NCBI GenBank assembly: GCA_030835405.1
Contig: JAURPG010000106.1
Coordinates: forward strand, 6,067 to 70,066
Origin: Gammaproteobacteria bacterium
Lineage (GTDB): Bacteria > Pseudomonadota > Gammaproteobacteria > Eutrophobiales > Eutrophobiaceae
Direction: 5' to 3'
DNA length: 64,000 bases
A model generated the notes under the pieces. The model worked only from the letters and a program-made list of their open reading frames with translations, did no database searches and was not told the DNA's origin. Made by a program: the position numbers and the translations under genes. Shown piece after piece: positions 1,991 to 30,150 of the stretch. Each line of letters opens with the position of its first letter. Within the stretch, counting starts at the first letter, position 1.

Positions 1991-2010
1991 CGTACAATTT
2001 AAATGTCATT

Positions 2011-2154
2011 ATGGAAGCGTCTAATAAGCATACTATTCGTATTGTATCCGGTGGTCAGACGGGGGTTGATCGCGCTGCGCTGGATGCGTTGGACCGATAT
2101 ATGCCAATACATGAGCTTTTAAAAAAGGCGGGTAATTCTGGAATTCCGATCTGA
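2011..2154 (+). pseudogene. Truncated N-terminal remnant (47 codons) of a SLOG/YpsA-like (putative molybdenum-carrier, PF12694-like) gene at the left edge of the AT-rich island
   Basis: It translates as MEASNKHTIRIVSGGQTGVDRAALDALDRYMPIHELLKKAGNSGIPI*. The I-SGGQTGVDRAALDA signature normally opens a protein of about 150-180 aa, and here it stops after 47 codons where the base composition drops sharply. Confidence 0.4.
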
Positions 2155-2321
2155 TATACGAGATCATACTAAACAGACTAAATCCATATATAAATCTATT
2201 TCGAATCCTGAATGAATCCTTGTCCGAAATATATATACCAGGTGTCCGTATGATTATTAATTGAAGATCAAACATCACATGAATTTCTGGTAGATAATAC
2301 AGTTTCAATATTTTCAGTTTT

Positions 2322-3107
2322 ATGAAAATTCGTCCTCAATATGTTAAACAGTCAAATCCGTTACAGTTATCTGTAATACAATTTACTGATACACATATAC
2401 ATTCTGGTTCAAAGACACTTTTGCATGGTATAGATAGTTCAGAAACCCTCAAGTCGATAGTTAGACATATCAATGAACTTGAGACGCCGGACGTAATCTT
2501 GCTTACTGGTGACCTTGTGGAAATACCGGATGAAGAATCATACCTTAAGTTGAGGGCAATACTTACAGAACTCAAAGCCCCGGTCTTTTGTTTACCAGGA
2601 AACCATGATTGCCCTGCGCTTATGTATAGATTGATGAATTATGAAAATATCAAAACTGATAAATTAATAAGGGGGGAGGACTGGCAACTAATACTCCTTA
2701 ATTCAATGATGCCCGGAGAAATGTATGGGTACTTGGATAAAGCAGAAACAGTATTTCTTGAAAAAGCAATTCAGGATTTCAATGATGGGTATTCGTTAGT
2801 TGCATTACATCATCATCCTGTAAAAGTTAACAGTCCCTGGATGGATACTATGGTTCTTGAGAACGCAGATAATTTTTTTCAGATACTTGAGTCAGGCCAT
2901 AATGTAAAAATAGTAATATGTGGACATATCCATAATGAATTGGAACTGTGCATAAATGATATCCTGATACTGGGAACACCTTCGACGAATGTTCAATATA
3001 TACTCGATTCGCAACAACCCGGGTACAATACTAAACTCCCGGCATACAGGAAGATAACACTTGGCGCATCAGGATTAATTGATTCAAACATTACCTGGAT
3101 TGGTTGA
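2322..3107 (+). CDS. Calcineurin-like metallophosphoesterase (CpdA/Icc class III phosphodiesterase-like)
   Basis: The metallophosphoesterase motifs are present in order: DTH, GDLVE, GNHD, HHHP and GHIHN. Confidence 0.7.
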   Translation: MKIRPQYVKQSNPLQLSVIQFTDTHIHSGSKTLLHGIDSSETLKSIVRHINELETPDVILLTGDLVEIPDEESYLKLRAILTELKAPVFCLPGNHDCPALMYRLMNYENIKTDKLIRGEDWQLILLNSMMPGEMYGYLDKAETVFLEKAIQDFNDGYSLVALHHHPVKVNSPWMDTMVLENADNFFQILESGHNVKIVICGHIHNELELCINDILILGTPSTNVQYILDSQQPGYNTKLPAYRKITLGASGLIDSNITWIG

Positions 3108-3124
3108 TTCATTTATTAATAGTT

Positions 3125-3825
3125 TTAAATATTGTAGTTATATTTATTTACTGCATCTCTTAACTCACTATACAGCGCATTGTCTTGCAAGTTTTTCCAA
3201 GTCACGCTGTCATCCCCGCTTTTGTCGCCATGTGTATTAAAGTCCTTTGGATGTTGCGCGAGTGCAGAATCTATTTTGGCCCAGGAAGCTTTAAATCCGA
3301 CTATATCAAGTATATTGGCAAGTAGATTACGGTCCAGGTCCTCAATTCTGTAGCGAAAGTAGTTTAGATGTTTCTGACGTTCTGCCTGCTCTGTAATAAG
3401 GTTCCAGTAAATCCAGTATTTTATTGATTTCTCAAACGGTGACCCGGGATTGATATCAGGGCAGTGTTGTAAAGCAAATGCGAGTGTGCGGACTACCCGC
3501 TCACGTTCAAAAAACCTGATTCTGAGCTTTGACCGGACGACTTCTAATGGATCACGTATCTGGTGAAAAACTATCGTCCCGGGGGGAACATATGGGAGAT
3601 ATGGTGCAGCTAACCATGATGATTCCCCCAATTTTGAAATACAGGAATACGCTCCGGGTATACAATTTCCTTTGCCTTTAGGAAAGTTGTTAATGTGTCA
3701 TCCGTTTTCAGGTTCCTTAAATTATAAAAACTTTCTTCGCCACAGGTGCATCCAAGTAAACCTAACAACGTAGCCATATACTGGGTTCCCGATCTACCAC
3801 AACCAGTAATGATAAATTGTTTCAA
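3125..3825 (-). pseudogene. Sulfotransferase split by a frameshift into two ORFs (3610-3825 N-terminal part, 3125-3631 C-terminal part)
   Basis: The N-terminal piece carries the PAPS 5'-phosphosulfate-binding loop (ITGCGRSGTQY). The C-terminal piece carries the 3'-phosphate-binding RDP-x5-S region (IRDPLEVVRSKL). The two pieces are in different frames and overlap at a C5/G5 homopolymer (3625-3629). Confidence 0.55.
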
Positions 3826-4976
3826 TTGGGCCTTCCTGTAACAATTGAATTTATGGCTAATATGAATCTTTCAGCAATTAGATCAAAACTCAGATTTCTA
3901 TCATAATAATCACGAATGGCATGGGAGTATTCTCCGTATTTTTCAGTGGGGATATCCAGTACCCTCTGTGATAATTCATCTGAATTACTAATATCAAATA
4001 ATGTACCAAACTGATTATTGCCAGTCAGGTACTGGAACGAAGGTATTTTTGTAACAACAGGTATAACCCCACATGCCATTGCTTCCACAAGGGAGTTTCC
4101 ACCATATTCAGTATGACTCGCCTGTAAAAAGAAATCTGCGCTGTTATAAAAATTTTCCATTTCATCAAAATCCATGGGGCCCAGTAAGTGCACGGCATTT
4201 CCAAGCTTGTCAGATTTCTGTAAAAAATCATTGACGGTATCAATCAGTTCATTGGTTTGATGGACCCAGTACAGTCGTGCACCAGGTCTCATCTGTAAAA
4301 TATTTTCAAATCCCATGAGTAAGGTTAAAGGATCTTTGACCGGATGAAGCCGGCTTGTAGCCACGCATATGGGATCCCCGGACATTCCGGTTCTGGCCCG
4401 CGCTTCTGCACGATCCAATCTACTGAAGAAACTTGATGTTTCCGGGCAAATTGATACACGAGTTGTTGGTGAAATTAAATTTGCCTCTTCCCATATTGCT
4501 TTTCTTTCAGGTGCATTGATAAGCAATACCGATATTTTTTCCATAGCCTGTTTTTGCAGGCTGCGATAATCATAGTCAGCTGCGGGGTTACTTCCATGAA
4601 AAGAAGCAGATAATATTATTGATCTTGAATTACAAACTTCGGCTACTGTTAATATATCGGCGGGTAATATACCAAAAATATGAATTATGTCAGGATTGAA
4701 TTCATTAATGACCCTGGTTAATGATTCAGGACTGATATGTTTTGACATTAAATTTTCAATGCCACCCGTAAATGGCCTGGATTCAATCGTACGAAGATGG
4801 CCAGAAGTAAAACTGAAAACCTTCTCACTGGAGTAACCCTGGACCCAGATTGCCTCATTTGATTTTTTTACCAAGGCTTTGGTGAATTCTCTGGGATGAA
4901 AATATTGTTTTACCAGGACATCCAGGGAACCAAAATTCCCATCAAAAATCGGGTTCAAAAGGATTATTTTCAACAT
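3822..4976 (-). CDS. Glycosyltransferase family 4 (GT-B fold, group 1)
   Basis: The C-terminal region has the GT4 sugar-donor-binding motif EYGGNSLVEAMACGVIPVVT (E-x7-E). Size is 384 aa. Confidence 0.75.
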   Translation of the reverse strand: MLKIILLNPIFDGNFGSLDVLVKQYFHPREFTKALVKKSNEAIWVQGYSSEKVFSFTSGHLRTIESRPFTGGIENLMSKHISPESLTRVINEFNPDIIHIFGILPADILTVAEVCNSRSIILSASFHGSNPAADYDYRSLQKQAMEKISVLLINAPERKAIWEEANLISPTTRVSICPETSSFFSRLDRAEARARTGMSGDPICVATSRLHPVKDPLTLLMGFENILQMRPGARLYWVHQTNELIDTVNDFLQKSDKLGNAVHLLGPMDFDEMENFYNSADFFLQASHTEYGGNSLVEAMACGVIPVVTKIPSFQYLTGNNQFGTLFDISNSDELSQRVLDIPTEKYGEYSHAIRDYYDRNLSFDLIAERFILAINSIVTGRPN

Positions 4977-5164
4977 ATTAATATTATATAAATTATATGC
5001 CAGTTAATTAACTTACGGCGAACATTTCGGTTAACCGGGAAACGCATACACTACATTCGATAATAATAACATCTTATACTAAGGCAATTATGAAATTCCG
5101 TTACTGTCCCGGATAAACTGTTGCCCTATGGGGCCGTTTTTCAAGGATTGCTTAATTGTGCCTT

Positions 5165-5947
5165 TTAATCAACACATCCATTTTCAATAGATGACAGGCA
5201 TTTGTTATATGTTGCCACCGCTTCATTCAACAGGTGTGACGGAATATCAATTTTAACGCGGTCCTCTACCTTGAGAATTTTTCCTGATTTAATCCTGTTC
5301 GATGGGTCTCCACGATAACCGGTATATCTATATAATTTGTACGTAGTCGATAATGAATGTTTCAGGTTGAGAAATTTCTGCAATCTTTCGAGTGTGACGG
5401 AAGATTCTTCAATCAAGTCCTCGTATTTTATTAATATGGAATTATCTGGAAGAGAAACGCCTTTAGCAATTTGTTCAATATTATTTATTCGACTAATATA
5501 GTATCGTGTTCCGCGTTCAACCGGCCAATTACCATATATAGGTTCAAACGTATTGACTATGCTGGATATTGTTTCTTCGGGTCTTCTCAGCAGAAATATT
5601 CTTTTTAATCCCGGATAATTTAGCACGTCGATATTCGGTGTCATTTTTTCATGATTGATCTGGTCAATAATTATTTTTCCATGGCTGAGAATTATTCTTT
5701 GCTGTTTGCAAATATCCAGGGCCAGGGTATTAAGATCCTCGATATCGTGGTAAGTTTTATTTCTTTCGCCACCTGCAATTATTTCTGGATGACTTGCCAG
5801 TAAATGCAGTAATAAAGTAGAACCAGAGCGCATGTGCCCAAGGATAAATGCGTACTTTTCCTGGCATTGCAGCCGGTTAATATACACGACCAGTTGCTTC
5901 TGGAAATCTGAATACCATTTTATTAATCTCGATTCTTCTCTGTCCAT
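5165..5947 (-). CDS. PAPS-dependent sulfotransferase
   Basis: It has the ILGHMRSGSTLL P-loop-like 5'-PSB motif near the N-terminus and is 260 aa. Confidence 0.65.
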   Translation of the reverse strand: MDREESRLIKWYSDFQKQLVVYINRLQCQEKYAFILGHMRSGSTLLLHLLASHPEIIAGGERNKTYHDIEDLNTLALDICKQQRIILSHGKIIIDQINHEKMTPNIDVLNYPGLKRIFLLRRPEETISSIVNTFEPIYGNWPVERGTRYYISRINNIEQIAKGVSLPDNSILIKYEDLIEESSVTLERLQKFLNLKHSLSTTYKLYRYTGYRGDPSNRIKSGKILKVEDRVKIDIPSHLLNEAVATYNKCLSSIENGCVD

Positions 5948-6092
5948 GTTGTTATTCCGATGCAGGCTATTACCTCTATAAAAAAGAACCAGTTAGAATT
6001 ATTGCTGTAAACTCAATCATAAACAAATAATCAATTTATGTTGAATTATTCAATTGCTGTGACACCATAATTTTAGAAACTGAATATCAAAT

Positions 6093-7271
6093 ATGTCACT
6101 GGTTATAAAAAATGTAATGTTACCAGATTGTGATCTGGCGAATGCTTTCTGTTTATCAACGAATTCTAATTCAGTCTGTTTCCGGAGCGCTGACAGTTTC
6201 GGGAAAAATGATGATGTTCTTGATCTTGATGAAGGCATGATCGCATTTCCGGGTATTATTAATTCTCATGATCACCTTGATTTTAATGATTTCCCATTGC
6301 TTCAGACCAGGATTTACGATGACTATATCGACTGGGCAAAAGACATTCATGAAAATGATAATTTCAAATATCAGATCGCCAGTTCAAAAAAAATTCCTTA
6401 TGAGAATAAAATGTTAACTGGATTAATCAAAAATCTCGTTTGCGGGATTACAACAGTAGTCAATCATGGAATAAAATCCAATACCAGGTATGAAGGAATA
6501 GAAATCCACGATCACTGTAGAATTTTACACTCAGATAAATATGAAACATGGCTGCCGATTAAAATTAATATCCCGTTTAATACCGCACCGGTAACAATAC
6601 ATATAGGTGAAGGCAAGACGGGCAGAGTAAGGCAGGAGATTGGCAGGGTACTGAAGTATAATCTGTTAAATAAAAAAATTATCGGAATACATGGAATAAC
6701 AATGGACTGTGGACAGGCAAAAAAAATCACTGCGCTGGTATGGTGTCCAGAATCGAATATTCAGCTGTATGGAAGGACAGCTTCGGTCGGGGAACTTGGC
6801 AGGTATACATCAATACTATTTGGAACGGATTCGACACTTACAGCTGACTGGAATATATGGAAACACATCAGGACCGCGAGAAATCTGGCGTATTTAGGCG
6901 ACGAGGAATTATTTTATACCTTGAACAGTAACCCGGCCAGGATATGGGGTAAATCATCAGCAGAATGCTTGACTGGTATGCAGGTGCCTGATGTGGTGTT
7001 TGCAAGGCGTAGAAAAAAGGATTACTGGGACAGTTTTTACATGACAGATCCCGAAGTAATTATGCTTGTATTTAAAAATGGCAAACCGGTTTTAATTGAT
7101 CAATCCATTTTCAAAATTTTGCAAAAAAAAATGCCAGAGTATGCAAAGTGGGGAATGATCAGGGTCCAGGATTCAATAAAATATATTCCATCCAGCCTGC
7201 TCAGGCAGTTTCAAAATGGTTATATATTCAAACAGATGCCGGTCGAAATTTTAAACACAAGTATTAACTAA
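6093..7271 (+). CDS. Metal-dependent amidohydrolase (chlorohydrolase/cytosine-deaminase-like superfamily)
   Basis: GIINSHDHLDFN carries the HxH metal-binding motif at the first beta-strand, with further His and Asp residues downstream. Size is 392 aa. Confidence 0.6.
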   Translation: MSLVIKNVMLPDCDLANAFCLSTNSNSVCFRSADSFGKNDDVLDLDEGMIAFPGIINSHDHLDFNDFPLLQTRIYDDYIDWAKDIHENDNFKYQIASSKKIPYENKMLTGLIKNLVCGITTVVNHGIKSNTRYEGIEIHDHCRILHSDKYETWLPIKINIPFNTAPVTIHIGEGKTGRVRQEIGRVLKYNLLNKKIIGIHGITMDCGQAKKITALVWCPESNIQLYGRTASVGELGRYTSILFGTDSTLTADWNIWKHIRTARNLAYLGDEELFYTLNSNPARIWGKSSAECLTGMQVPDVVFARRRKKDYWDSFYMTDPEVIMLVFKNGKPVLIDQSIFKILQKKMPEYAKWGMIRVQDSIKYIPSSLLRQFQNGYIFKQMPVEILNTSIN

Positions 7272-7325
7272 CACGATATATTATTAGTCCACGCCTCATT
7301 ACAAAAAACAGGGACAGAAATCAGC

Positions 7326-8321
7326 ATGCCGGCAAATATGACAGCAGAAGATATTCTTGGATATCAGGGGAACCTGGATCATGAGAGAATTTACCCACTC
7401 CTGGGAGTGACTGTTAAAATTCGAAGTAACGATGTAAAGATAATTAAAAATGCCGATATTGCCCTGGGACACTGGAATAACGCTGGTAATGATTTCGATG
7501 TAGACAATTCAAACTTGTGTCTGGACATCATTTTACAGGAAGAAGCGGAAATTAATTCATCAGGGGAAGAACATTTATTTATTCACAGGTATCGCGATGA
7601 TATATACCTAGCAAATTGTGATAAAAATATACTCGTGGCATTTAGAAATGCAGGCAAGGGACTGGCTTATGTAACTGAAGGTTTGGTTAATGATATTCAG
7701 GGGTTTAACTGGTTTGTCGTTGAGGCATTGTCATTATTTCTCGTGACATATCGACGTCGTGTACCCGTTCATGCGTCAGCTGTAACGAATGGTAAACTGG
7801 CTGTTGCTTTTATGGGGAAAAGCGGTGCTGGTAAATCAAGTTTGGCCTATGTTTTTATGAAGCATGGGTTCGACCTTCTTGCTGAAGATGTGATCTATTT
7901 TGGGATGGAAGACGATTTTAGAATATGGGGAAACTCCACAAAAATCCATTTACTACCAGATGCAATAAAGCTGTTTCCAGAATTATCAAACTGTGTCCCT
8001 GTAAAAAGGCCAAACGGAAAAATTAAAATACAAGTACCGGTAAATGACGTCGGTAAGATAAAACCAGTTCATTGTGTAAAAAATATTGATATCTGCCTGC
8101 TAAAACCGGACCGTAACAGCAGGGACAGCCGGATTGAACCTATTACACCAGATTACCTCAGGGACTATCTATTGTCCTCATTGGAACCGGGTTTTAATAT
8201 TGAACTGGATAGTTTAATGATATCCATGGAAAAGTTACTAAAGCAAAGACTGTACCTTTTAACGGTAGGAAGCGATATTGATGCGGTTCCTGATCTTGTT
8301 TCGGAAATCCAGGATATATAA
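7326..8321 (+). CDS. HPr kinase (HprK) C-terminal-domain-like P-loop protein, the type of predicted peptide/small-molecule kinase found in RiPP and lasso-peptide clusters
   Basis: HASAVTNGKLAVAFMGKSGAGKSSLAYVFMKHGFDLLAEDVIYF contains a Walker A (GxSGxGKS) followed by the L-x-x-DD element typical of the HprK C-terminal domain. The N-terminal half is unrelated to HprK. Confidence 0.6.
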   Translation: MPANMTAEDILGYQGNLDHERIYPLLGVTVKIRSNDVKIIKNADIALGHWNNAGNDFDVDNSNLCLDIILQEEAEINSSGEEHLFIHRYRDDIYLANCDKNILVAFRNAGKGLAYVTEGLVNDIQGFNWFVVEALSLFLVTYRRRVPVHASAVTNGKLAVAFMGKSGAGKSSLAYVFMKHGFDLLAEDVIYFGMEDDFRIWGNSTKIHLLPDAIKLFPELSNCVPVKRPNGKIKIQVPVNDVGKIKPVHCVKNIDICLLKPDRNSRDSRIEPITPDYLRDYLLSSLEPGFNIELDSLMISMEKLLKQRLYLLTVGSDIDAVPDLVSEIQDI

Positions 8322-8420
8322 TACGATAAGCATGTAACTGTTTTATCAAAAAAAGATGAATGAAACATAAAAGTCACGTTTACGAGATGAGTTCTATAAA
8401 TATGAATATGGAGATTTTCA

Positions 8421-9854
8421 GTGGTTGACATACTCCTCGCCCATGCTTTTTATATTACCAATGATACTAAACAGCGTGAAGAAAAGTTTCGCCCATATCC
8501 GCCGCTAGCAACCTTGTATGCTGCAAGTATTTTGAGAGACTCCGGGTATGAAGTCGCACTGTATGATGCGACTCTTGAGCAAAATGAGGATTCATTTCAG
8601 GAAATTTTCAATGATGTTAACCCTCGTTTATTGATTATCTATGAGGACAATTTCAATTTTTTGAGCAAGATGTGCCTGACACATGTAAGGGAAGCCACGT
8701 TACGAATGGCAAAGACCGGAAAAGATGCAGGTACCTCGGTAATTGTATGTAGTTCAGATGCCAGTGATGACCCATCAACCTACCTGGCTTGTGGAGTAGA
8801 TTATGTCATCCTTGGAGAGGGTGATGTAACAGTTAAGGAACTATCAGATAATTTATTGCAACAGTCTTCAATGGACATTGGCACGATTCCCGGTATCGCT
8901 TATATCAATGGAGACAGGGACATTTCCCAGTCACCCAGGCGTATGAACCTTAGAGACCTTGACAGCATTCCTTTTCCTGCCAGAGACCTGGTTGATATTG
9001 AGAATTATAGAGACGCATGGGAAAGCGTACATGGTTATTTTAGCATGAGTATGGTTACCACCCGGGGATGTCCATATGCCTGTACCTGGTGTGCCAAACC
9101 TATCTGGGGAAAAAGCTATGCAGTCAGGTCACCCGAAAATGTTGCCGAAGAACAGGCGTTGTTGAAACAGCATTGTTCACCTGATCATATTTGGTTCATG
9201 GACGATATATTTGGACTTAAACCAGGCTGGATTGAAAGGTATTCACTGGAGGTAAATGCAAGGGAAGCAAATATCCCGTTTATGATACAGACGCGGGCAG
9301 ATTTAATGAATCCCGAAGTCGTTAAAAGCCTTGCCGATGCCAATTGTGAAGAAGTGTGGCTCGGGGCTGAAAGCGGTAGTCAATCGGTCCTTGATTCAAT
9401 GAAAAAGGGTATAACCGTAGAGCAGATTCATGAAGCCCGGCGGTTACTGGGTAATGAGGGTATCAGGACATGTTTTTTTATCCAGTTCGGTTATCCTGGG
9501 GAGACGCTGGAGGACATCAGCTTAACCGTGGACCTGGTACGATCCGCTTTACCAGACAACATAGGCGTCAGCGTAAGTTACCCCCTGCCGGGTACCGAAT
9601 TCCATGAACTTGTTATGAATGAGATTAATGAAAAAACCCACTGGAATGAAAGCAATGATCTTGAAATTATGTTTGAAGGCGCATATGATTCGAGCTATTA
9701 CCGTAAGCTTGGAAAATTCCTGCACCGTGATCTAGATGCCCGCCTGGGTATAAGCAATGAAGATTTGAATGTTTTGCAGTGTGAATGGGAACAGCTTGTT
9801 GATTCAGCACGGAATTATGAAGCCACTGCTTCAGAAACCAGTAATACTGTTTAA
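8421..9854 (+). CDS. B12-binding domain radical SAM enzyme (class B rSAM; probable methyltransferase or other carbon-centred modifier)
   Basis: The N-terminus is a Rossmann-like cobalamin-binding region (ILLAHAF...PPLATLYAASILRDSGYEVALYDA). The rSAM cluster is RGCPYACTWC (CxxxCxxC). The annotated start is GTG. The gene sits in an operon-like array with the next four genes. Confidence 0.8.
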   Translation: MVDILLAHAFYITNDTKQREEKFRPYPPLATLYAASILRDSGYEVALYDATLEQNEDSFQEIFNDVNPRLLIIYEDNFNFLSKMCLTHVREATLRMAKTGKDAGTSVIVCSSDASDDPSTYLACGVDYVILGEGDVTVKELSDNLLQQSSMDIGTIPGIAYINGDRDISQSPRRMNLRDLDSIPFPARDLVDIENYRDAWESVHGYFSMSMVTTRGCPYACTWCAKPIWGKSYAVRSPENVAEEQALLKQHCSPDHIWFMDDIFGLKPGWIERYSLEVNAREANIPFMIQTRADLMNPEVVKSLADANCEEVWLGAESGSQSVLDSMKKGITVEQIHEARRLLGNEGIRTCFFIQFGYPGETLEDISLTVDLVRSALPDNIGVSVSYPLPGTEFHELVMNEINEKTHWNESNDLEIMFEGAYDSSYYRKLGKFLHRDLDARLGISNEDLNVLQCEWEQLVDSARNYEATASETSNTV

Positions 9855-9870
9855 ACACGAGTGAGTATTC

Positions 9871-11277
9871 ATGCCTGACTTAATCCTGACACACGGTTAT
9901 TTCCTGTGTGAAGACCCAAAAGAACAGGAAATTATGAAACCATATGCCCCTCTGGGCCTGATGTATTTGTCTGCATATCTAAAGGGCAAAGGATTTAATG
10001 TCGAAATTTTTGATTCGATGTTTTCAAATCGAGAAACGCTGGAAGAATTTCTCAGAAATAATGCCAATGGTGTCCTTGGCATATATACAAATTTAATTAC
10101 CCGGTCGAGCGTACTCAATATTATTTCAATGGCAAAAAAACATGGATTTCAAGTCATTCTTGGCGGCCCTGAATCTGCAAACTATCCGCAAGAATATCTG
10201 AATCATGGTGCCGACGTGATTGTCCTGGGAGAAGGAGAACAGACCCTGGAAAAACTATTACCTGCCATTCAGAATCCCGGTTCGGCAGGCCTTCAGGCTG
10301 TTGATGGTATCGTTTTTAAAGATAAATCTGGTAACCTGATCACTACTAATCCGAGAATATCACCCAATGATCTTGCTATTTACCCCTGGCCCGACAGGGA
10401 ATCCATAGATATAAGGAAATATCTGCAGGTCTGGCGTGATCATCATGGGCTTGGCAGTATCAGTATGATTACTGCAAGGGGCTGTCCCTATCGTTGCACA
10501 TGGTGTTCCCATGCAGTTTACGGCTACAGCCATCGACGGCGTAAGCCGGCCGATTGTGCCAGTGAGCTTGACTACATCATGAATGAATATTCTCCGGATC
10601 AGATATGGTATGCGGACGATGTATTTACCATAAGCCATCCATGGTTATATGAGTATTCAGCCCAGTTAAAAAACAGGGGATTGAAAGTGCCGTTTGAAAC
10701 AATTTCCCGCGCAGACAGGCTAATGAAACCGGAAGTTTTGGACACGCTTGTAGAGATGGGTTGTGATCGAATCTGGATTGGCTCGGAGAGCGGCAGTCAA
10801 AAAATACTCGATGCAATGCAACGTGATGTGACAGTGGAGCAGATTCAGTGGGCCTCACATGAGCTGAAAAAAAGGGGGATAAAAGTCGGTATGTTTCTTA
10901 TGTGGGGTTACGGGAATGAAACACTTGAGGATATTGAAAAAACAGTGGAACACGTAAAAATTTCTGACCCGGATGTTTTTTTTACTACAATTGCCTATCC
11001 TATTAAAAATACGCCTTTTTATAACGAGTTCAGTGACAGCATAACAATGTCCGGAGATTGGGCTTCGGGTACGGATAGGGATTATAAAATATCAAATCAA
11101 CGGGGCCCTGAATATTATAAGGCTGCTGACATTCTGCTGTTTAATTCTGTTGAGGCTTCCCGTAATCAATATAGCGACCACAAAGAAAGTTTAATACATA
11201 AAAAACTTGCAGATGATGCAAGGTTATACTTACAGGAATATGAACGAAAGCACATCATCAATAAGACAGGTATTTAA
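9871..11277 (+). CDS. B12-binding domain radical SAM enzyme, a tandem paralogue of the upstream gene
   Basis: The architecture is the same: PYAPLGLMYLSAYLKGKGFNVEIFD followed by RGCPYRCTWC (CxxxCxxC). Blocks such as SPDQIWYADDVF match SPDHIWFMDDIF in the upstream paralogue. The gap to the upstream gene is 16 nt. Confidence 0.8.
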   Translation: MPDLILTHGYFLCEDPKEQEIMKPYAPLGLMYLSAYLKGKGFNVEIFDSMFSNRETLEEFLRNNANGVLGIYTNLITRSSVLNIISMAKKHGFQVILGGPESANYPQEYLNHGADVIVLGEGEQTLEKLLPAIQNPGSAGLQAVDGIVFKDKSGNLITTNPRISPNDLAIYPWPDRESIDIRKYLQVWRDHHGLGSISMITARGCPYRCTWCSHAVYGYSHRRRKPADCASELDYIMNEYSPDQIWYADDVFTISHPWLYEYSAQLKNRGLKVPFETISRADRLMKPEVLDTLVEMGCDRIWIGSESGSQKILDAMQRDVTVEQIQWASHELKKRGIKVGMFLMWGYGNETLEDIEKTVEHVKISDPDVFFTTIAYPIKNTPFYNEFSDSITMSGDWASGTDRDYKISNQRGPEYYKAADILLFNSVEASRNQYSDHKESLIHKKLADDARLYLQEYERKHIINKTGI

Positions 11278-12034
11278 TCAGCTTGCTGCACATTACGATA
11301 CGATATTTACAAATACCGATATTGGCAGGATGCTTCGACAACGTACACATGACCTGCTTAATGGAATGTTTACTCCGGGGCAAACAGTTCTTGTTCTAAA
11401 TTGTGGCACCGGTGAAGATGTTATTCACCTGGCCAGGCAGGGCATAAATGTTTTAGCATCGGATAACTCGGAAGAAATGATCAAGTTTGCAAAAATTAAA
11501 GTGAATCAAGCCGGTTTAAATCATATGGTTGAATTCAGGCAGATAAATTTTGATAAACTTGATTACAGCCTTTCCTCTGGAGAAACGTTTGACGGGATAA
11601 TATCTAATTTTGGTGGAATAAATTGCTCCTCAGACATATCGCAGGTAGTAAAAAATATTGCAGATTATCTGCGGCCGGGTGGCAAGCTCTACCTTTGTAT
11701 AATGGGGCAGTTCGTACCATGGGAGTGGTTATACCTGGGGGTAAGAGGGAAGTATAAGAGGATTTATCATAGATTCAGAGGTAGCTGTATATGGAGAGGA
11801 CAGGAAATAAAGTATTATTCCCCGGCTGAAATCGAGACGTATTTGTCGATACATTATCGATCTACTCAATGTAGTGGGCTTGGGTTTCTCATTCCTCCCA
11901 GTTATGCAGGAAAATTGTTCTCAAAATTCCCCCGTGTTTTTTATTTTTTGAACTGGGTTGAGAAACATTTAGAAACTTTTTTCCCAATTCCTTTGCTTAG
12001 TGATCACTTTGTTTTTAAATCAATAAGAAAGTGA
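11240..12034 (+). CDS. Class I SAM-dependent methyltransferase
   Basis: SAM motif I is VLVLNCGTGEDV, and a post-I acidic residue is present. The ORF is open from 11207, but the Met at 11240 avoids most of the overlap with the upstream gene. The stop overlaps the next start (ATGA). Confidence 0.7.
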   Translation: MNESTSSIRQVFNQLAAHYDTIFTNTDIGRMLRQRTHDLLNGMFTPGQTVLVLNCGTGEDVIHLARQGINVLASDNSEEMIKFAKIKVNQAGLNHMVEFRQINFDKLDYSLSSGETFDGIISNFGGINCSSDISQVVKNIADYLRPGGKLYLCIMGQFVPWEWLYLGVRGKYKRIYHRFRGSCIWRGQEIKYYSPAEIETYLSIHYRSTQCSGLGFLIPPSYAGKLFSKFPRVFYFLNWVEKHLETFFPIPLLSDHFVFKSIRK

Positions 12035-12954
12035 AACATTCCCGCGATTGGCAAGGAATATGTCCTGTCTGTAAATCAGAAATAGGAACCCTGACATGGC
12101 CGGGAAAGAATATTGATTGTGGTGATTGTCTGGAATCATTTAAATCAATAGAGGGGATTTATCAGCTTATACAACCAGGGCGTCTCAATGCCTATAAGCA
12201 GTTTCTGGACGATTATACCAGCATAAGAATTGCAGAAGGCCGGGGTGATCATGGCCATGATTACTATTGCCGACTGCCAGAGCCCACTGTGTCGGACCCA
12301 TTATCATGGCAATGGAAAATCAGAAGTAAGAGCTTCAAAACCCTGGTATCTGTACTGGATCTGGAATCTACCAGGCAACGCAGAATCCTTGATCTGGGTG
12401 CCGGAGTGGGGTGGTTGTGTCATCGTGTGGCATCATTGGGGCATTACCCCATAGCAATTGATATCAACATGGATGAAATGGATGGACTCAGGGCAGGAAG
12501 GTTTTATGACAGGAGCTGGCCCTGCATACAGGCTGAATTCGATAACTTGCCCATCCAGAATGAACAGGCAGATTTGGCCATATTCAATGCGAGCTTACAC
12601 TACAGCACAGACTATTACGGTACTCTGAAAGAAGCACTAAGGGTCCTGAGGGGGGATGGGCAGTTAGTGATAATCGATTCACCAATATACAGACGGCCCG
12701 ACAGTGGTATCAATATGAAGTTACAACGACACGAATTTTTTAATAAGGTATACGGTTTTAGATCTGACAGTATTGACAGTATTGAATTCCTGACCTGGGG
12801 AATGCTTGAAGAGTTGGAGAAAAAACTCGAAGTAAAATGGAGGATAATCAGGCCATGGTATGGATTACGATGGGCTATGCGCCCGCTGACATATGCAGTT
12901 AAAGAATCGCGCGAAGCATCAACATTTGCAATTTTAATGGGAACCCGGGCCTGA
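12031..12954 (+). CDS. Methyltransferase with an N-terminal 4-Cys zinc-ribbon (Trm112-like) domain
   Basis: The N-terminus has CPVC...CGDC. Downstream lies SAM motif I, ILDLGAGVGW. The gene is translationally coupled on both sides. Confidence 0.6.
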   Translation: MKHSRDWQGICPVCKSEIGTLTWPGKNIDCGDCLESFKSIEGIYQLIQPGRLNAYKQFLDDYTSIRIAEGRGDHGHDYYCRLPEPTVSDPLSWQWKIRSKSFKTLVSVLDLESTRQRRILDLGAGVGWLCHRVASLGHYPIAIDINMDEMDGLRAGRFYDRSWPCIQAEFDNLPIQNEQADLAIFNASLHYSTDYYGTLKEALRVLRGDGQLVIIDSPIYRRPDSGINMKLQRHEFFNKVYGFRSDSIDSIEFLTWGMLEELEKKLEVKWRIIRPWYGLRWAMRPLTYAVKESREASTFAILMGTRA

Positions 12955-13961
12955 TGAATAAATTGACATCCTTGCCTGCAAACGACGATATGGTTAAACA
13001 ACTACCAATCATGGTTTTAATGCTTAAATCAGATTGCAACTGTCGCTGCACGATGTGTGATATCTGGAAAGGAAATTCCAGCGAGTCACTGGAATATGAT
13101 GGTGTTAAGGATCTGGTGAAGCAACTTCAATCTCTAGATACACATGAGATTGTACTCAGTGGCGGCGAGCCATTGATGCACAGGGAAATCGAGTCGGTTT
13201 GCAGGTTATTGTCGACAATGAATTTCAGAGTCACCCTGATTACTACAGGATTGTTACTCAAACGTCATGCGCAATGGATTAGTAAATATATCGATCAAAT
13301 ATACATCAGTCTTGATGGACCAGAAAAAGTACATAATTCTATCAGGAACATTCCAGGTGCTTATGTAAAAATTAAAAAAGGTGTGGAAGCAGTCCGGCAT
13401 TACAGACCGGACATTAATATTGGAGCACGTTGTACCATACAAAAACAAAATTACAGGTATATCGGTGATACTGTCGATGCAGCCAGGGAGTTGGGTATGA
13501 ACACCATCAGTTTCCTGGCAGCAGATGTCAAGGCTGAAGTTTTTGGCAGGACCAGTGACTGGAAAGATAACGGGATTGCCCTGACCGGTACAGAGCTTTC
13601 TGAGCTTGAAGATATTCTTCAGCAATTTTTCATAAATTATAAAAATGATTTTGATTCAGGATTTATAGTTGAAGATAGAAATAAATTACAGACAAAACTA
13701 CTAGATTATTATCACGCCCTCAGTACGGACAGGAATTTCCCCGGGGTGGATTGTAACGCACCATGGGTTTCAGCAGTCGTAGAAACAAACGGAAAAGTAA
13801 GGCCCTGTTTTTTTCATAAACCCTATGATGAAGCTCTGGATAATAAATCCGTCAATGAGATCATTAATTCTGATACGGCAAAAAAATGGAGAAAAGAACT
13901 GGACGTCAAAACCAACGATATCTGTCGAAGCTGTGTTTGTTCGCTTTCGTATGGCGTATGA
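12954..13961 (+). CDS. Radical SAM enzyme with a C-terminal SPASM/twitch-like Cys cluster
   Basis: The rSAM cluster is CNCRCTMC (C-x3-C-x2-C). The C-terminal region has additional cysteines (C...C...CRSCVC) compatible with auxiliary Fe-S cluster ligation. Confidence 0.7.
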   Translation: MNKLTSLPANDDMVKQLPIMVLMLKSDCNCRCTMCDIWKGNSSESLEYDGVKDLVKQLQSLDTHEIVLSGGEPLMHREIESVCRLLSTMNFRVTLITTGLLLKRHAQWISKYIDQIYISLDGPEKVHNSIRNIPGAYVKIKKGVEAVRHYRPDINIGARCTIQKQNYRYIGDTVDAARELGMNTISFLAADVKAEVFGRTSDWKDNGIALTGTELSELEDILQQFFINYKNDFDSGFIVEDRNKLQTKLLDYYHALSTDRNFPGVDCNAPWVSAVVETNGKVRPCFFHKPYDEALDNKSVNEIINSDTAKKWRKELDVKTNDICRSCVCSLSYGV

Positions 13962-14039
13962 GCACACAAAATATTGTGCGGTTATTCGTCTGTAGAACGT
14001 GTCCGATAATTATAGCCTGCAACGATCAGTATTAAGTAT

Positions 14040-15230
14040 TTGTATTATTATTCATTAATCATATTGAGTCAGTTAGATTTGAGTCCGTCACTGAACATCG
14101 TTTTTATCACCCCGGGAGGTGTGGACAGGAGTGGCCGTGAAAGGGTCATACCACACTTTTTATGGCTGCTTGAAAAGCTCTCGTTAAATCATAATGTAAA
14201 AGTGATAAGTTTATTTCAGTATGATTCTGCCTGTGAATATTCACTTAACGGCATACAGATTTCTGTTCCCGGGAAGATACGGCAAGACTGGAAAACTGAT
14301 AAGGAACCCGGGACAGTATTGAATGATTTGTACGAAGCATGTATCGCATACCTGGATCCTGCTGAACCGGTTGACATTGTCCATGGCTTGTGGGGATTTC
14401 AGGCCGGTTGGATTGCCACCAGAATTGCATCTTCGTTAAAGATTCCTTCTGTAGTGAGTTTGATGGGAGCCGAGTTTGTATCTTTTCCGGACATCAAATA
14501 TGGTGGGCAGTACTGGGAACATCAACGGTTGACATTAAATGATACTTTAAAAAATGCCACTGCATTAACTGTTGCAAGTCACTTTATGCAAGATATGGCT
14601 TCCGCATACAGTATAGAAACTGATTACATACCTTTTGGCGTACATGAGTCCTGCTTTCAGGACAACGGGGCACTGGATATTCCAACCTGGCGACTCCTGA
14701 CTGTTGCGAGTATAAATAGAATAAAGGATTTTTTTACCTTGATTGAGGCCTTCAGGATAGTTGTTGATGAAATCAATGATGTTCAACTGGATATTATTGG
14801 TGAAGATGTCATGGATGAGGAAATACAGGCGTTATCTGACAGATTATGTCTGACTAATCATGTTAACTTTCATGGATTCCTGCCAAATGACGAGATACGG
14901 AAATATTTCCAGAGGGCACATCTGTATGTGGTTACCTCGATAAACGAAACCGGACCAATAGCCATGCTGGAAGCTGCGGCTTGTAAAGTAGCAACTGTGG
15001 GAACCAAAGTTGGATATGTATCTGACTGGGACGGTAAACGCTCACTGGCTGTGGAGTCCCAGAGCCCTGGTAAGCTTGCAGTGCAGATAATCTATCTGAT
15101 AAAGCACGAACCAGTCCGAAAAAATCTCGGTATGGCCGCATATAAATGGGTTCGGGAGTATGATGTAAACTGGACTTCTAACAGACTAACTAAACTTTAT
15201 CTTGACCTGATAAATAATCATATGGATTAA
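14040..15230 (+). CDS. Glycosyltransferase family 4 (group 1); the true start is probably downstream of the annotated ATG
   Basis: The C-terminal region has ETGPIAMLEAAACKVATVGT, the E-x7-E GT4 signature. The first 15 or so codons (MYYYSLIILSQLDL...) look non-coding. A TTG near IVFITPGG is a plausible alternative start. Confidence 0.65.
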   Translation: MYYYSLIILSQLDLSPSLNIVFITPGGVDRSGRERVIPHFLWLLEKLSLNHNVKVISLFQYDSACEYSLNGIQISVPGKIRQDWKTDKEPGTVLNDLYEACIAYLDPAEPVDIVHGLWGFQAGWIATRIASSLKIPSVVSLMGAEFVSFPDIKYGGQYWEHQRLTLNDTLKNATALTVASHFMQDMASAYSIETDYIPFGVHESCFQDNGALDIPTWRLLTVASINRIKDFFTLIEAFRIVVDEINDVQLDIIGEDVMDEEIQALSDRLCLTNHVNFHGFLPNDEIRKYFQRAHLYVVTSINETGPIAMLEAAACKVATVGTKVGYVSDWDGKRSLAVESQSPGKLAVQIIYLIKHEPVRKNLGMAAYKWVREYDVNWTSNRLTKLYLDLINNHMD

Positions 15231-15313
15231 ACTGGGTGTCACATAGTATTCAAGCAGTGGTAACAGTTCATTACCTTATTTTTCACAAATATATTTAAAA
15301 CGTTTAATCAGGC

Positions 15314-15338
15314 AGGGAGAATGGGACCCTCTCCCTTT
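15314..15338 (+). terminator. Candidate intrinsic terminator hairpin downstream of the GT4 gene
   Basis: A 7-bp stem agggaga/tctccct with a 9-nt loop is followed by TTTAT. Confidence 0.3.
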
Positions 15339-15526
15339 ATGTGAACCCGGAATTGCTTTGCATTTTAGATAGCACTTACTCGTAACAGGGACTAAAAGCA
15401 AGATGGAAAAACTGATTTTTAGAGGTCTTTAGCGGGATAATCCCTGTCTGTTTCAATGGTAATTAACTATATCTATGATATACAATGATTTACACTCAAT
15501 TGGCATTATGAATCGGGATAGCTAAT

Positions 15527-16462
15527 TTGAAAACACATAATATTCTTGTCCTTTTGACTGCTTGTGCAATATTGTCCTTGTTCTTGCCAGATGTCGCCTA
15601 TGCCCAGGCAACGCAGAATCAGGCAGGCACATATATCGGCACCCAGGTTTGTTCGTCCTGCCACAATGACCTTTCAGATCACTGGTCCCATACAGTGCAT
15701 TCAAAGATTTTCATGAATAACCCGGGAAATGAAATTGAGCGCCGGGGCTGTGAATCATGCCATGGCCCCGGCTCAGAGCATATAATAGATCCAACGGCGG
15801 TGGATAAAATAATCAGGTTTTCCCAAAATGCACCAAGCCCAACCGGGGAACAGAATCGATCATGTCTCCAGTGTCATGCCGGCGGAAATCGAATCCACTG
15901 GTCAAGCTCAATACACGAAAGTAATGATTTGGCCTGCGCTGATTGTCATAACCCGATGGCAAACTTCTCCTCTGTTAATCTACTGGTGCAAAACAATATT
16001 AATGAGACCTGTTTCATGTGTCACAAGGAACAACGTAGCCAGTTTAACAGGCGATCACATATGCCGTTGAATGAAGGTAAAATGTCATGCACTGACTGCC
16101 ATAACCCCCATGGCAGTAATACGGATAGCCTGCTGAAAACTGATAATGTGAATCAGACCTGTTTTCAATGCCATGCGGAAAAAAGAGGTCCTTTCCTCTT
16201 TGAACATGCCCCGGTAACCGATAATTGCCTGAACTGCCATGAACCCCATGGTTCGAACCATGAAAAATTACTGCTTACAGCCCGCCCAATGTTATGTCAG
16301 CAGTGCCACACATCCATCGGGCATATGAATGACCTGTTTACATCAGGAAATCTTGCAACGGGTAGTCGCCCGGACATACGCCTAATTGGGAGAAGTTGCC
16401 AGAATTGTCATACGCAGATCCATGGATCCAACCATCCGGCAGGATCAAAATTCCAACGGTAG
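15527..16462 (+). CDS. Periplasmic decaheme c-type cytochrome of the MtrA/MtoA/PioA family
   Basis: Ten CxxCH haem-binding motifs are spread over 311 aa (CSSCH, CESCH, CLQCH, CADCH, CFMCH, CTDCH, CFQCH, CLNCH, CQQCH, CQNCH). A signal peptide is present. The apparent start codon is TTG. Confidence 0.8.
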   Translation: MKTHNILVLLTACAILSLFLPDVAYAQATQNQAGTYIGTQVCSSCHNDLSDHWSHTVHSKIFMNNPGNEIERRGCESCHGPGSEHIIDPTAVDKIIRFSQNAPSPTGEQNRSCLQCHAGGNRIHWSSSIHESNDLACADCHNPMANFSSVNLLVQNNINETCFMCHKEQRSQFNRRSHMPLNEGKMSCTDCHNPHGSNTDSLLKTDNVNQTCFQCHAEKRGPFLFEHAPVTDNCLNCHEPHGSNHEKLLLTARPMLCQQCHTSIGHMNDLFTSGNLATGSRPDIRLIGRSCQNCHTQIHGSNHPAGSKFQR

Positions 16463-16483
16463 TATCCATATCAAATTCATCAG

Positions 16484-18973: not shown

Positions 18974-18997
18974 ACTAATTTGAAATTATTATAATAA

Positions 18998-19927: not shown

Positions 19928-19957
19928 AGTTTTAGTTAGTCGAGATATTTTATTCTG

Positions 19958-21181
19958 ATGAATGATAATACATATGCAAGCAATAATGGTGAACTTGTTC
20001 TACTTTCTACCCGCCAACATATGGGCCGGGAAACGGCGGAAAAAATCAGTCTGTTATTTAAAACAGAACTGGACTGGAAAAAAATAGTTTCAATTGCAAA
20101 AAGAAACAAAGTCGTTCACCTGGTAGATAAAACCATGACCGAACACTTTGACGGCATGGTTGATTCAGAAGATTTGCAGGCACTTACTGATGAATCGCAG
20201 GTGCATTTTAAAAGTAATGAGGATAGTCTTGATTTGTTATTGGATATCAAGACACTGTTGTTGTCTGAAAGCATCCCCGTCATTTTCTTTAAGGGTATTA
20301 TCTTTGCCCATGTGTATAACAAGGACTATAAATTTCGAACACAGGGCGATATTGACATACTGGTCAGACCGGAAGATTTCCTGAAAGCAAGGGATATACT
20401 AGTAAGAAATGGTTTTGAGTCTGTTTATTTCGGTCATGCTGAAGTGTCAACTGTCCAGGCACAACTGGGCAGGAGCGACAGGCGAGCCAGCGTTGACTTG
20501 CACTATGGGGTCACCCCCCAGTACCAGCAGACCAATATGGATGAGGCATTAAGCGGAAGTAAATTTGACAAAAAATACCGTAATAAAATCGTCAAAAACC
20601 GTACCTACTGGTTTTGTCAATTTCAAACTGAAGAAATCTGGAAACGCAAAATCCAGATTGAGATAGAAGGCGAAACCATTACCACGCTGTCCCACGAAGA
20701 TACGCTCCTGGTGGCTGTCATTCATGCGGCAAAAGAAAACTGGAGATCGATGAGCAGAATAAGTGATATCACTGCGATTATAGAAACAAGCGGAAACCTG
20801 AACTGGGAAATTATCTATGAAACGGTAAGTGGATTGGGCTTTTTAAAAAAGTTTTATCTCGGTATCAGGTTAGCAAACGAGATGTATGATGTTGAATTGC
20901 CTGTAAATGTAATCAGGATGATGAATAAACATGGTTCAAAGTATCTCGCCAGACAGATTATCTTTAGACTGACCCTGGATAACTTTACTGTTGATATGGA
21001 AGAATTCAGGCGAATCGTTGCAATTATGACGATGGATTCAATCACAGATTTTTTCAGGTACCTGCAATATGTATTCAATACTCCGGCGGGTCCAACCGGC
21101 AAGGAGATAACCCAGGGAAATTTCCTGGGCTTTTTAAAGGTATTATCCGGTCAATATATACGGAAATTTCTATCCCGCTAA
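19958..21181 (+). CDS. Nucleotidyltransferase-family protein (uncharacterised NTP_transf_5-like type), as found beside HprK-like kinases and sulfotransferases in RiPP clusters
   Basis: It has the QGDIDILVRPEDF acidic motif characteristic of this nucleotidyltransferase fold. Size is 407 aa. Confidence 0.5.
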   Translation: MNDNTYASNNGELVLLSTRQHMGRETAEKISLLFKTELDWKKIVSIAKRNKVVHLVDKTMTEHFDGMVDSEDLQALTDESQVHFKSNEDSLDLLLDIKTLLLSESIPVIFFKGIIFAHVYNKDYKFRTQGDIDILVRPEDFLKARDILVRNGFESVYFGHAEVSTVQAQLGRSDRRASVDLHYGVTPQYQQTNMDEALSGSKFDKKYRNKIVKNRTYWFCQFQTEEIWKRKIQIEIEGETITTLSHEDTLLVAVIHAAKENWRSMSRISDITAIIETSGNLNWEIIYETVSGLGFLKKFYLGIRLANEMYDVELPVNVIRMMNKHGSKYLARQIIFRLTLDNFTVDMEEFRRIVAIMTMDSITDFFRYLQYVFNTPAGPTGKEITQGNFLGFLKVLSGQYIRKFLSR

Positions 21182-21333
21182 CCCCATCTATCTGGCAATA
21201 ATACCTTCAATACGACAAAAAGTTATGTAACTAACTGATTTCAATATAATTTGCCGGATTATGCATAAGGTTTTATACTCGGGTATATATGGTGCAGCTG
21301 TCACTATCAGGAAATCCAGGAGACACTTATCCA

Positions 21334-25090: not shown

Positions 25091-25117
25091 CTGGGCTGCA
25101 TAGTTAAGGAGTTTGCA

Positions 25118-30120: not shown

Positions 30121-30150
30121 AGAATTATACTCAGGATATGAATAGTCAGA

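Follow-up and report, generated by a model that had tools for sequence, protein, structure and literature searches.

An ancient pair of paralogous class-B-type radical S-adenosylmethionine genes in an operon-like cassette of a gammaproteobacterium

Two adjacent genes, rSAM_A and rSAM_B, were identified in a 64-kb stretch of DNA from a gammaproteobacterial assembly (GCA_030835405.1, contig JAURPG010000106.1); this stretch is the part of the host genome that was analysed and is called the window below. The gene rSAM_A (8421..9854, + strand, GTG start) encodes a protein of 477 amino acids (aa) with an N-terminal Rossmann domain of the B12-binding-like type and a radical S-adenosylmethionine (SAM) core. 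The gene rSAM_B (9871..11277, + strand, ATG start) encodes a paralogous class-B-type radical SAM protein of 468 aa and follows rSAM_A on the same strand after 16 nucleotides (nt). Judging from the sequences of both proteins and of their relatives, the two are paralogues that form an ancient pair, and not the product of a recent or local tandem duplication. In the reading that we favour, to which we give a probability of about 0.45, each of the two enzymes would carry out a radical tailoring step of its own, probably a C-methylation, on a single product that is methylated several times, maybe a glycoconjugate. The system is a multi-enzyme class-B radical SAM tailoring cluster, which is a well-known kind, with members that are themselves uncharacterised, and as such it is an ordinary example and no surprise. 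Some of the most difficult C-H functionalisations known are the work of cobalamin-type radical SAM enzymes, a group in which the majority of subfamilies have no assigned function. For enzyme discovery, a conserved cassette in which A and B are separable modules offers a well-defined target, and it would add a cobalamin-dependent trait to many environmental lineages.

Domains, motifs and conservation of the two proteins

As described in the original prediction, the two open reading frames (ORFs) are adjacent, encode the same order of domains and share conserved blocks. The Pfam Radical_SAM domain was matched with 79 bits in rSAM_A and 73 bits in rSAM_B. The Pfam B12-binding domain (PF02310) was matched with 32.8 bits in rSAM_A, a marginal score against the cutoff of 32.1, and with 56.9 bits in rSAM_B. 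All three predicted motif pairs were present in rSAM_A and rSAM_B, respectively: RGCPYACTWC and RGCPYRCTWC, SPDHIWFMDDIF and SPDQIWYADDVF, and WLGAESGSQSVLDSMKKGITVEQI and WIGSESGSQKILDAMQRDVTVEQI. The cluster motif CxxxCxxC was found as C217-x3-C221-x2-C224 in rSAM_A and as C205-x3-C209-x2-C212 in rSAM_B. The substantial divergence that had been predicted was also seen, as BLASTP aligned the two proteins end to end over 468 columns (32% identity, 53% positives), and with E = 4e-92 their similarity is far greater than chance would give.

The Cys triad was kept in 68 of 68 A-type and 31 of 31 B-type orthologues examined. The A family had 115 invariant columns and a mean column identity of 67% across phyla, and the B family had more than 100 invariant columns and a mean column identity of 74%. 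One segment within the Rossmann domain, from E75 to R90 (E75, D76, F78, F80, L81, K83, M84, C85, L86 and R90), was invariant in the A family only, which argues for a functional importance, the nature of which the segment does not indicate.

AlphaFold2 models of rSAM_A and rSAM_B reached predicted local distance difference test (pLDDT) values of 82.7 and 86.8, respectively, and both contained a five-stranded alpha/beta Rossmann domain and a radical SAM barrel (partial TIM barrel). The top Foldseek matches were TsrM, AprD4 and MgmA for rSAM_A, and TsrM, OxsB, MgmA and AprD4 for rSAM_B. The best set for both consisted of TsrM, AprD4, MgmA, OxsB, CysS and TokK, with template modeling (TM) scores of 0.6-0.74 and 14-21% identity; TsrM, OxsB, MgmA, TokK and CysS are cobalamin-bound structures. 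By architecture, both proteins are of the class-B type. Cobalamin use stays a prediction because AprD4 and ArsL carry related domains and bind no cobalamin (PMC12931638).

Loss of the Cys triad or of the B12-binding domain from one protein had been named in the original prediction as the mark of a degenerate copy. The triad was present in both proteins and in all orthologues, and the Rossmann domain was present in both AlphaFold2 models. The marginal B12-domain score of rSAM_A could be taken as a sign that one gene is a non-functional duplicate; however, the full-length ORFs, the complete triads, the strong purifying selection across phyla visible in the invariant columns and the confident models all speak against it. 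A degenerate copy is contradicted by the conservation data and is next to impossible. With intact domains, intact triads and strong conservation, both proteins look functional.

Age and distribution of the pair

Database searches found A orthologues that were 47-65% identical and B orthologues that were 56-68% identical. Each of the two families is large: the search for each scored at least about 8,000 candidates, nearly all with E <= 1e-10, and these include other B12-type radical SAM proteins. The top matches listed were 50-68% identical and came from bacteria of soil, wastewater, freshwater and marine habitats, most of them uncultured, and none of these proteins was functionally named. Both families were found in Gammaproteobacteria, Chloroflexota, Acidobacteriota, Planctomycetota and Armatimonadota, and A was additionally found in Actinomycetota, Bacteroidota, Calditrichota and Myxococcota. 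Together with methyltransferase genes, the pair has been retained in a cassette of tailoring genes in at least six bacterial phyla.

In a neighbour-joining distance tree of 116 sequences (66 A and 29 B), constructed without support values, A and B were reciprocally monophyletic, and so were C4 and C9, which are further groups of B12-type radical SAM proteins from the same loci. Within each of these two groups, A and B, identity was 56-57%, against 32% between the two. There was no in-register DNA repeat between rSAM_A and rSAM_B. The order A then B, often with a tiny gap or overlap, was found in Gammaproteobacteria, Anaerolineae, Acidobacteriota, Planctomycetota and Armatimonadota. The two genes had been described as tandem duplicated; the paralogy is real, but the reciprocally monophyletic groups of orthologues, the missing DNA repeat and the A-B order across phyla do not fit a duplication at this locus. 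Recent tandem duplication and gene conversion were rejected because no in-register repeat exists, the A and B clades are deep, and each protein is closer to its orthologues in other phyla (50-68%) than the two are to each other (32%).

The C4 family (about 520 aa) and the C9 family (about 475 aa) were encoded in related cassettes of Anaerolineae, two large genomes (7.7 and 8.8 Mb) and a gammaproteobacterial metagenome-assembled genome (loci L084, 14895-21524; L003, 14650-18311; L086, 14719-21494; and L005, 6193-8859), with up to four B12-type radical SAM genes in one locus.

Separable modules in a methyltransferase-rich cassette

For the related loci, ORF calling followed a simple longest-ORF rule. 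A B orthologue was found in 35 of the 68 A-anchored loci with enough downstream sequence and was directly adjacent in 26. Conversely, A was found in 15 of the 25 B-anchored metagenome loci with enough upstream sequence and was adjacent in 12. A and the methyltransferase gene MT1 occurred without B in Acidimicrobiia and some Anaerolineae, B and MT1 occurred without A in several loci, and the order A-MT1-B was found in some. About half of the loci had one of the two genes without the other, in every case accompanied by a methyltransferase gene, which indicates that A and B work as tailoring modules independent of each other and do not make up one enzyme as its subunits. An obligate A-B complex was rejected on the same counts, and the two genes are read as separable modules and neither as an obligate nor as an iterative pair.

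The gene order on one strand of the window was amidohydrolase-HPr-kinase-like-rSAM_A-rSAM_B-MT1-MT2-SPASM-GT4, with intergenic distances from -62 to +99 nt. This same-strand block (6093-15230) is operon-like; a promoter and terminator scan of 5000-21500 gave a number of sites no higher than in shuffled sequence. The two methyltransferase genes expected downstream of the pair were both of the class I SAM-dependent type. MT1 (11216..12034, + strand; start taken from gene calls on identical contigs) encodes a UbiE/CpaM-like enzyme (Pfam Methyltransf_25/31/11), and its first 60 nt or so lie within the 3' end of rSAM_B. MT2 (12031..12954, + strand; Pfam Methyltransf_11/25) overlaps MT1 by 4 nt, and its product has an N-terminal CxxC...CxxC segment resembling a zinc ribbon. 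The next gene (12954..13961, + strand), which overlaps MT2 by 1 nt, encodes a SPASM-domain radical SAM enzyme of 335 aa (Pfam Radical_SAM, Fer4_12 and SPASM). Its best NCBIfam match was the PTO1314 family (98 bits, cutoff 306) and its best PDB match was the cytosylglucuronate decarboxylase BlsE (E = 1.7e-10). The block is closed by a gene for a glycosyltransferase of family 4 (GT4; 14040..15230, + strand; Pfam Glycos_transf_1, 92.9 bits).

Directly upstream of rSAM_A lies a gene for an HPr-kinase-like P-loop protein (7326..8321, + strand) with a GKSGAGKSS motif. It gave a weak match below the cutoff to Pfam Hpr_kinase_C (25.5 bits) and marginal PDB matches, and it matched the NCBIfam HprK-related kinases A and B with E = 1e-5 to 1e-6. 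The block is opened by a gene for a divergent amidohydrolase-superfamily protein with an HxH motif (6093..7271, + strand). The window copy had no Pfam match and only weak NCBIfam TRZ/ATZ and chlorohydrolase matches, and a representative of the family matched Amidohydro_1 (E = 4e-16). The family is nearest to nucleobase, 5'-deoxyadenosine and guanine deaminases, and not to sugar deacetylases.

Among 83 A-anchored loci, MT1 co-occurred with A in 51, B in 39, GT4 in 24, MT2 in 21, the HPr-kinase-like gene in 19 (including Acidimicrobiia and Chloroflexota), the amidohydrolase gene in 15 and the SPASM gene in 14. MT1 was also found in most B-anchored loci, and no other gene accompanied A and B as constantly. 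A Pfam census of 131 neighbouring ORFs from 23 diverse loci contained 24 class I methyltransferases, 13 additional radical SAM proteins (11 with a B12 domain), 6 GT4 and 5 family 2 (GT2) glycosyltransferases, 2 Wzx, 2 Wzy and 3 ABC transporters, so that class I methyltransferases and further B12-type radical SAM genes were the commonest neighbours. The core that recurred in many phyla consisted of MT1 and of A, B or both; MT2, the SPASM enzyme and additional genes for B12-type radical SAM proteins were present in some cases and absent in others. Of the original interpretation, the part that concerns full-length paralogues with intact motifs in a methyltransferase-rich context stood, and this context fits pathways for multiply methylated products; the local duplication did not stand, and the pair is read as separable, not as obligate or iterative.

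The loci of the closest relatives (L001, L004 and L136) were fully syntenic and had in addition a nucleoside diphosphate (NDP)-sugar epimerase/dehydratase gene directly upstream of the cassette. Chloroflexota loci also contained genes for a PIG-L deacetylase, GT4, Wzy_C, a membrane GT2 and an unidentified 314-aa protein. The cassette of L084 encoded a HemK2/MTQ2-type methyltransferase that scored above its NCBIfam cutoff, and the same Pfam set was found at the matching position in L003 and L086. A 71-aa protein (MSKKVAVW...GDPTPRKQK) with apparently two membrane-spanning segments was encoded about 350-650 nt upstream of the rSAM_A orthologue in L007, L008, L012, L015, L079 and L084, only in Amarolinea-like Anaerolineae.

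Comparison with curated families and known systems

A protein was assigned to a family when its whole-protein score reached the NCBIfam curated cutoff. Neither protein reached the cutoff of any NCBIfam model compared (MgmA, HpnJ, HpnR, BchE, PhpK, BzaD, AprD4, ApyD, KedN5, TsrM-type, ArsL, TIGR04072, TIGR04295 and TIGR04013). The scores of rSAM_A and the cutoffs were 117 and 360 bits for MgmA, 116 and 578 for HpnJ, 99 and 481 for BchE, and 98 and 251 for TIGR04013. For rSAM_B they were 131 and 600 bits for PhpK, 131 and 481 for BchE, 107 and 578 for HpnJ, and 105 and 360 for TIGR04072. Both proteins scored 80-84 bits against HpnR (cutoff 650), 51-64 bits against TIGR03975 (cutoff 282), the C-methyltransferase model for ribosomally synthesised and post-translationally modified peptides (RiPPs), and 98-105 bits against TIGR04072 (cutoff 360), which is named 'lipid biosynthesis B12-binding/radical SAM'. 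The AprD4 model gave 87 and 50 bits (cutoff 500). By these scores, rSAM_A and rSAM_B lie outside every characterised subfamily compared. Literature searches that combined B12 radical SAM enzymes with glycans, HPr kinase, Acidobacteria or branched glycerol dialkyl glycerol tetraethers (GDGTs) yielded no account of the A and B families.

The best solved relatives by sequence were 9CCB and AprD4. The structure 9CCB is that of MgmA/QCMT (PMC11796369, PMC12931638), which belongs to TIGR04014 and resembles A and B in size and in the combination of a Rossmann B12 domain with a radical SAM core. For rSAM_A, it ranked first among the NCBIfam matches and among the PDB sequence matches, and within the top three in structure. 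However, it is archaeal, acts on a protein and is only about 20% identical, and no target protein or peptide is evident at the locus in the window.

The match to MgmA/QCMT, a glutamine C-methyltransferase of methyl-coenzyme M reductase (PMC11796369), raises the alternative that A and B modify the side chains of a large protein or of a ribosomal peptide, by C-methylation or in another way, that the SPASM enzyme cross-links it and that the HPr-kinase-like protein phosphorylates serine. Other observations that would suit a peptide or protein substrate are the matches to HprK_rel_A and HprK_rel_B, the HemK2/MTQ2-type protein glutamine methyltransferase in the L084 cassette and proteins of 1,940-1,954 aa without a Pfam match that adjoin the cassette in L003 and L086. 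SPASM proteins, HprK-related kinases and NTP_transf_5 proteins are recurrent in peptide maturation. However, no small ORF was conserved beside the cassette across phyla, the intergenic regions of the window contained no plausible precursor, and Pfam scans found no gene for PqqD or a RiPP recognition element (RRE), a protease or a lasso cyclase. When 2,012 small intergenic ORFs from all loci were clustered, the recurrent ones were antisense shadows and the lineage-restricted 71-aa membrane protein. The similarity to MgmA is itself weak and no better than that to enzymes that do not act on peptides. These results, which concern precursors in or beside the cassette loci, weaken the peptide reading, and it is quite unlikely.

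AprD4, the apramycin 1,2-diol dehydratase (PDB 6FD2), resembles A and B in length and fold, with TM scores of 0.69-0.74. It acts on an aminoglycoside sugar, which would suit the glycosyltransferase-rich context of the cassette, but its identity to A and B is only 16-19%, it binds no cobalamin and it is not a methylase (PMC12931638). Both proteins have AprD4 among their best matches in structure and in sequence, and one or both enzymes may therefore be non-methylases that use radical chemistry to rearrange, dehydrate or cyclise a small molecule such as an amino-sugar, a cyclitol or a nucleoside-like compound, as do AprD4, HpnJ, OxsB and BchE, with only the class I enzymes methylating. The scores of HpnJ and BchE, which equal those of any methylase family, and the closeness of the SPASM enzyme to BlsE, an enzyme of nucleoside sugars, are consistent with this. 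The combination of GT4, PIG-L or amidohydrolase, and SPASM/twitch-type radical SAM genes also recalls aminoglycoside and hopanoid-cyclitol pathways, and HpnJ acts alongside a glycosyltransferase and a deacetylase. We consider a non-methylase role unlikely all the same: the similarities are all remote, at 16-21% identity and far below the family cutoffs, and the cassette has no aminotransferase, cyclitol synthase or other scaffold enzyme. HpnJ (TIGR03471), BchE (TIGR02026) and PhpK (TIGR04479) were among the best-scoring curated families, but all of them lie four- to five-fold under their cutoffs, and hopanoid, bacteriochlorophyll and phosphonate genes were not found in the window.

GrsA and GrsB, the ring synthases of GDGTs, are an ancient pair of paralogues that act on different carbons of one substrate and have a separable occurrence (PMC13459092). 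The A/B pair is likewise ancient and separable, a likeness by description and not by sequence. GrsA and GrsB, in contrast, are archaeal lipid cyclases, and the context in the window has no lipid genes. A and B could similarly act at two positions of an alkyl or polyprenyl chain of a membrane lipid, like GrsA/GrsB, HpnP/HpnR and the methylase of glycerol monoalkyl glycerol tetraethers (GMGTs). The precedent of paralogous B12-domain radical SAM enzymes for different carbons of one lipid (PMC13459092), the scores of about 100 bits against TIGR04072 and the frequency of both families in Acidobacteriota and Chloroflexota would agree with such a lipid substrate. Since the core includes no scaffold enzyme, the molecule modified could be a common constituent of the cell. 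However, the scores against TIGR04072 and HpnR are far below the cutoffs, genes of lipid synthesis were absent from the window and from the neighbour census, and the neighbours that were found are glycosyltransferases, sulfotransferases and Wzx/Wzy. A membrane-lipid substrate is very unlikely.

A parallel to two tailoring steps on one multiply methylated product is given by natural-product pathways. In the gentamicin pathway, several paralogous class-B enzymes, each with its own position, work together with class I methyltransferases (PMC4340712). The cassette resembles the gentamicin, polytheonamide and carbapenem sets in having at least two paralogous class-B enzymes and class I methyltransferases in one cluster, and TokK was a structural match to A and B with a TM score of about 0.6. 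Such multi-enzyme sets include GenK/GenD1 and GenN for gentamicin, PoyB/PoyC and PoyE for polytheonamide, and ThnK/L/P and TokK for carbapenems, and the combination of class-B radical SAM sets with class I methyltransferases is typical of the gentamicin, polytheonamide, bottromycin and bacteriochlorophyll c pathways. The majority of the class-B radical SAM enzymes that have been characterised are methylases. The likeness to GenK, GenD1, Fom3 and PoyC rests on their descriptions and not on their sequences. Furthermore, the known pathways are lineage-restricted and have obvious scaffold genes, whereas the cassette is spread over at least six phyla at 50-68% identity and has no scaffold gene.

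Proposed function and substrate

In the favoured reading, each enzyme would use a [4Fe-4S] cluster and SAM to generate a 5'-deoxyadenosyl radical, which would abstract a hydrogen from an unactivated carbon. Each enzyme would then most probably move a methyl group from methylcobalamin to this carbon, as the tendency of the family and the co-located methyltransferases suggest. The positions on which A and B act would differ, on one substrate or on closely related ones, and O- or N-methyl groups would come from the class I methyltransferases, which gives a multiply methylated product. More tentatively, the substrate may be the sugar moiety of a glycoconjugate, either secreted or in the cell envelope, for whose assembly and decoration the flanking glycosyltransferases (GT4 and GT2) and sulfotransferases would be responsible. 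The deaminase-type amidohydrolase may clear inhibitory 5'-deoxyadenosine or S-adenosylhomocysteine, which is plausible from the relatives of its family, or it may work on the substrate of the cassette itself.

The neighbours that suggest a substrate were limited to glycosyltransferases, Wzx/Wzy, PIG-L, sulfotransferases and the NDP-sugar epimerase. The window contained two GT4 genes, one disrupted GT2 gene and sulfotransferase genes, the relatives contained the NDP-sugar epimerase gene, and loci of other phyla contained GT4, GT2, Wzx, Wzy and PIG-L genes, as would be expected of a glycan locus. Glycosyltransferases and Wzx/Wzy made up about 11% of the census neighbours, while glycosyltransferases are usually about 1-2% of genes, and a glycoconjugate is therefore favoured. 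As many loci lack these genes, A and B are tied to a glycan through association only.

Several observations weigh against this function. Although glycosyltransferases were enriched near the cassette, many loci had none, the invariant core has no substrate-defining or scaffold enzyme, and the GT2 gene beside the island has three in-frame stop codons here. The non-methylases HpnJ, BchE and AprD4 were among the nearest curated families, with scores like those of the methylases. As for the cofactor, some A orthologues had no recorded match to the B12 domain, the match of rSAM_A was marginal, AprD4 and ArsL have such domains and bind no cobalamin, and genes for cobalamin synthesis or uptake were absent from the window. 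The activity, cofactor and product of both families are predictions from sequences and models.

A wider form of the proposal is that the cassette is a phylum-spanning pathway that adds several C-methyl groups to an assembled cell-envelope glycan or glycolipid, with A and B as position-specific sugar C-methylases. Up to four B12-type radical SAM enzymes, the SPASM enzyme and several class I methyltransferases would belong to such a pathway. To our knowledge, C-methylation of bacterial surface polysaccharides after their assembly has not been described, and we regard this form as rather doubtful. A less likely variant is that A and B methylate the alkyl chains of lipids that span the membrane in Acidobacteriota or Chloroflexota.

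Other genes of the island and the window

The GC content was 0.38-0.44 from about 2000 to 21000 and about 0.50-0.52 in both flanks. Divergent to the cassette, a sulfotransferase gene (5165..5947, - strand; Pfam Sulfotransfer_3 and Sulfotransfer_1) and a second GT4 gene (3822..4976, - strand; Pfam Glycos_transf_1, 60.6 bits, with weak BshA-like matches) were found. The sulfotransferase gene was syntenic in relatives, and the second GT4 gene was syntenic in L001, L004 and L136. At the far end of the low-GC island, a gene for an NTP_transf_5 nucleotidyltransferase (19958..21181, + strand; PF14907, 142 bits) was found. It adjoins the cassette in L005 too, and its membership in the cassette is uncertain.

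A GT2 gene (18998-19927, + strand) consisted of one reading frame without a frameshift and with three in-frame TAG codons (19343-19345, 19400-19402 and 19535-19537). Each TAG aligned to a Gln codon (CAG or CAA) of the L001 orthologue, which was 73% identical at the protein level. All three stops being TAG and all being at Gln positions is an odd pattern, and the same three TAG codons were present in identical sequence in four other independent assemblies. No suppressor tRNA was found in the window. Genome-wide recoding of TAG was rejected, as TAG ends five other long ORFs, including housekeeping genes, and no other gene had TAG read-through. The disrupted GT2 gene is probably a pseudogene. A 168-aa ORF without a Pfam match (3125-3631, - strand) resembled the C-terminal remnant of a sulfotransferase-like gene, and the frame upstream of it (to 3820) contained TAG, TAA and TGA stops. 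This remnant and the disrupted GT2 gene suggest gene decay in the island.

Within the low-GC, glycan-like island, two genes at 15527-18973 (+ strand) encode an MtrA-like multihaem cytochrome with several CXXCH pairs and an MtrB/PioB-type outer-membrane porin (342 bits). This pair is a porin-cytochrome module of the type used in extracellular electron transfer or iron oxidation. It also adjoined the radical SAM cassette in relatives, on the same side in L001, L004 and L136, and on the opposite side and inverted in L005 and L133.

Farther downstream, an amidase with a twin-arginine-like N-terminus (28591-30120, + strand) was followed by a protein of the MbnB/TglH/ChrH family (DUF692; 30151-31044, + strand) and an overlapping 305-aa partner with no clear domain (31041-31958, + strand). 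The MbnB/TglH/ChrH family is involved in peptide modification in other systems; no obvious small precursor-like ORF was found near 28591-31958. The remaining genes of the window were housekeeping genes, such as those for SecDF, QueA/Tgt, MurA, HisGD, the bc1 complex, FtsI and MurEF. At 21289-26677 (+ strand), a 'planctomycete cytochrome'-type protein of 823 aa (DUF1592/DUF1588/DUF1585) was encoded together with a DUF1552 protein of 447 aa, and 3' of this pair there was a gene for a secreted ankyrin-repeat protein of 519 aa; the GC content rose to about 0.50 in this stretch of three genes.

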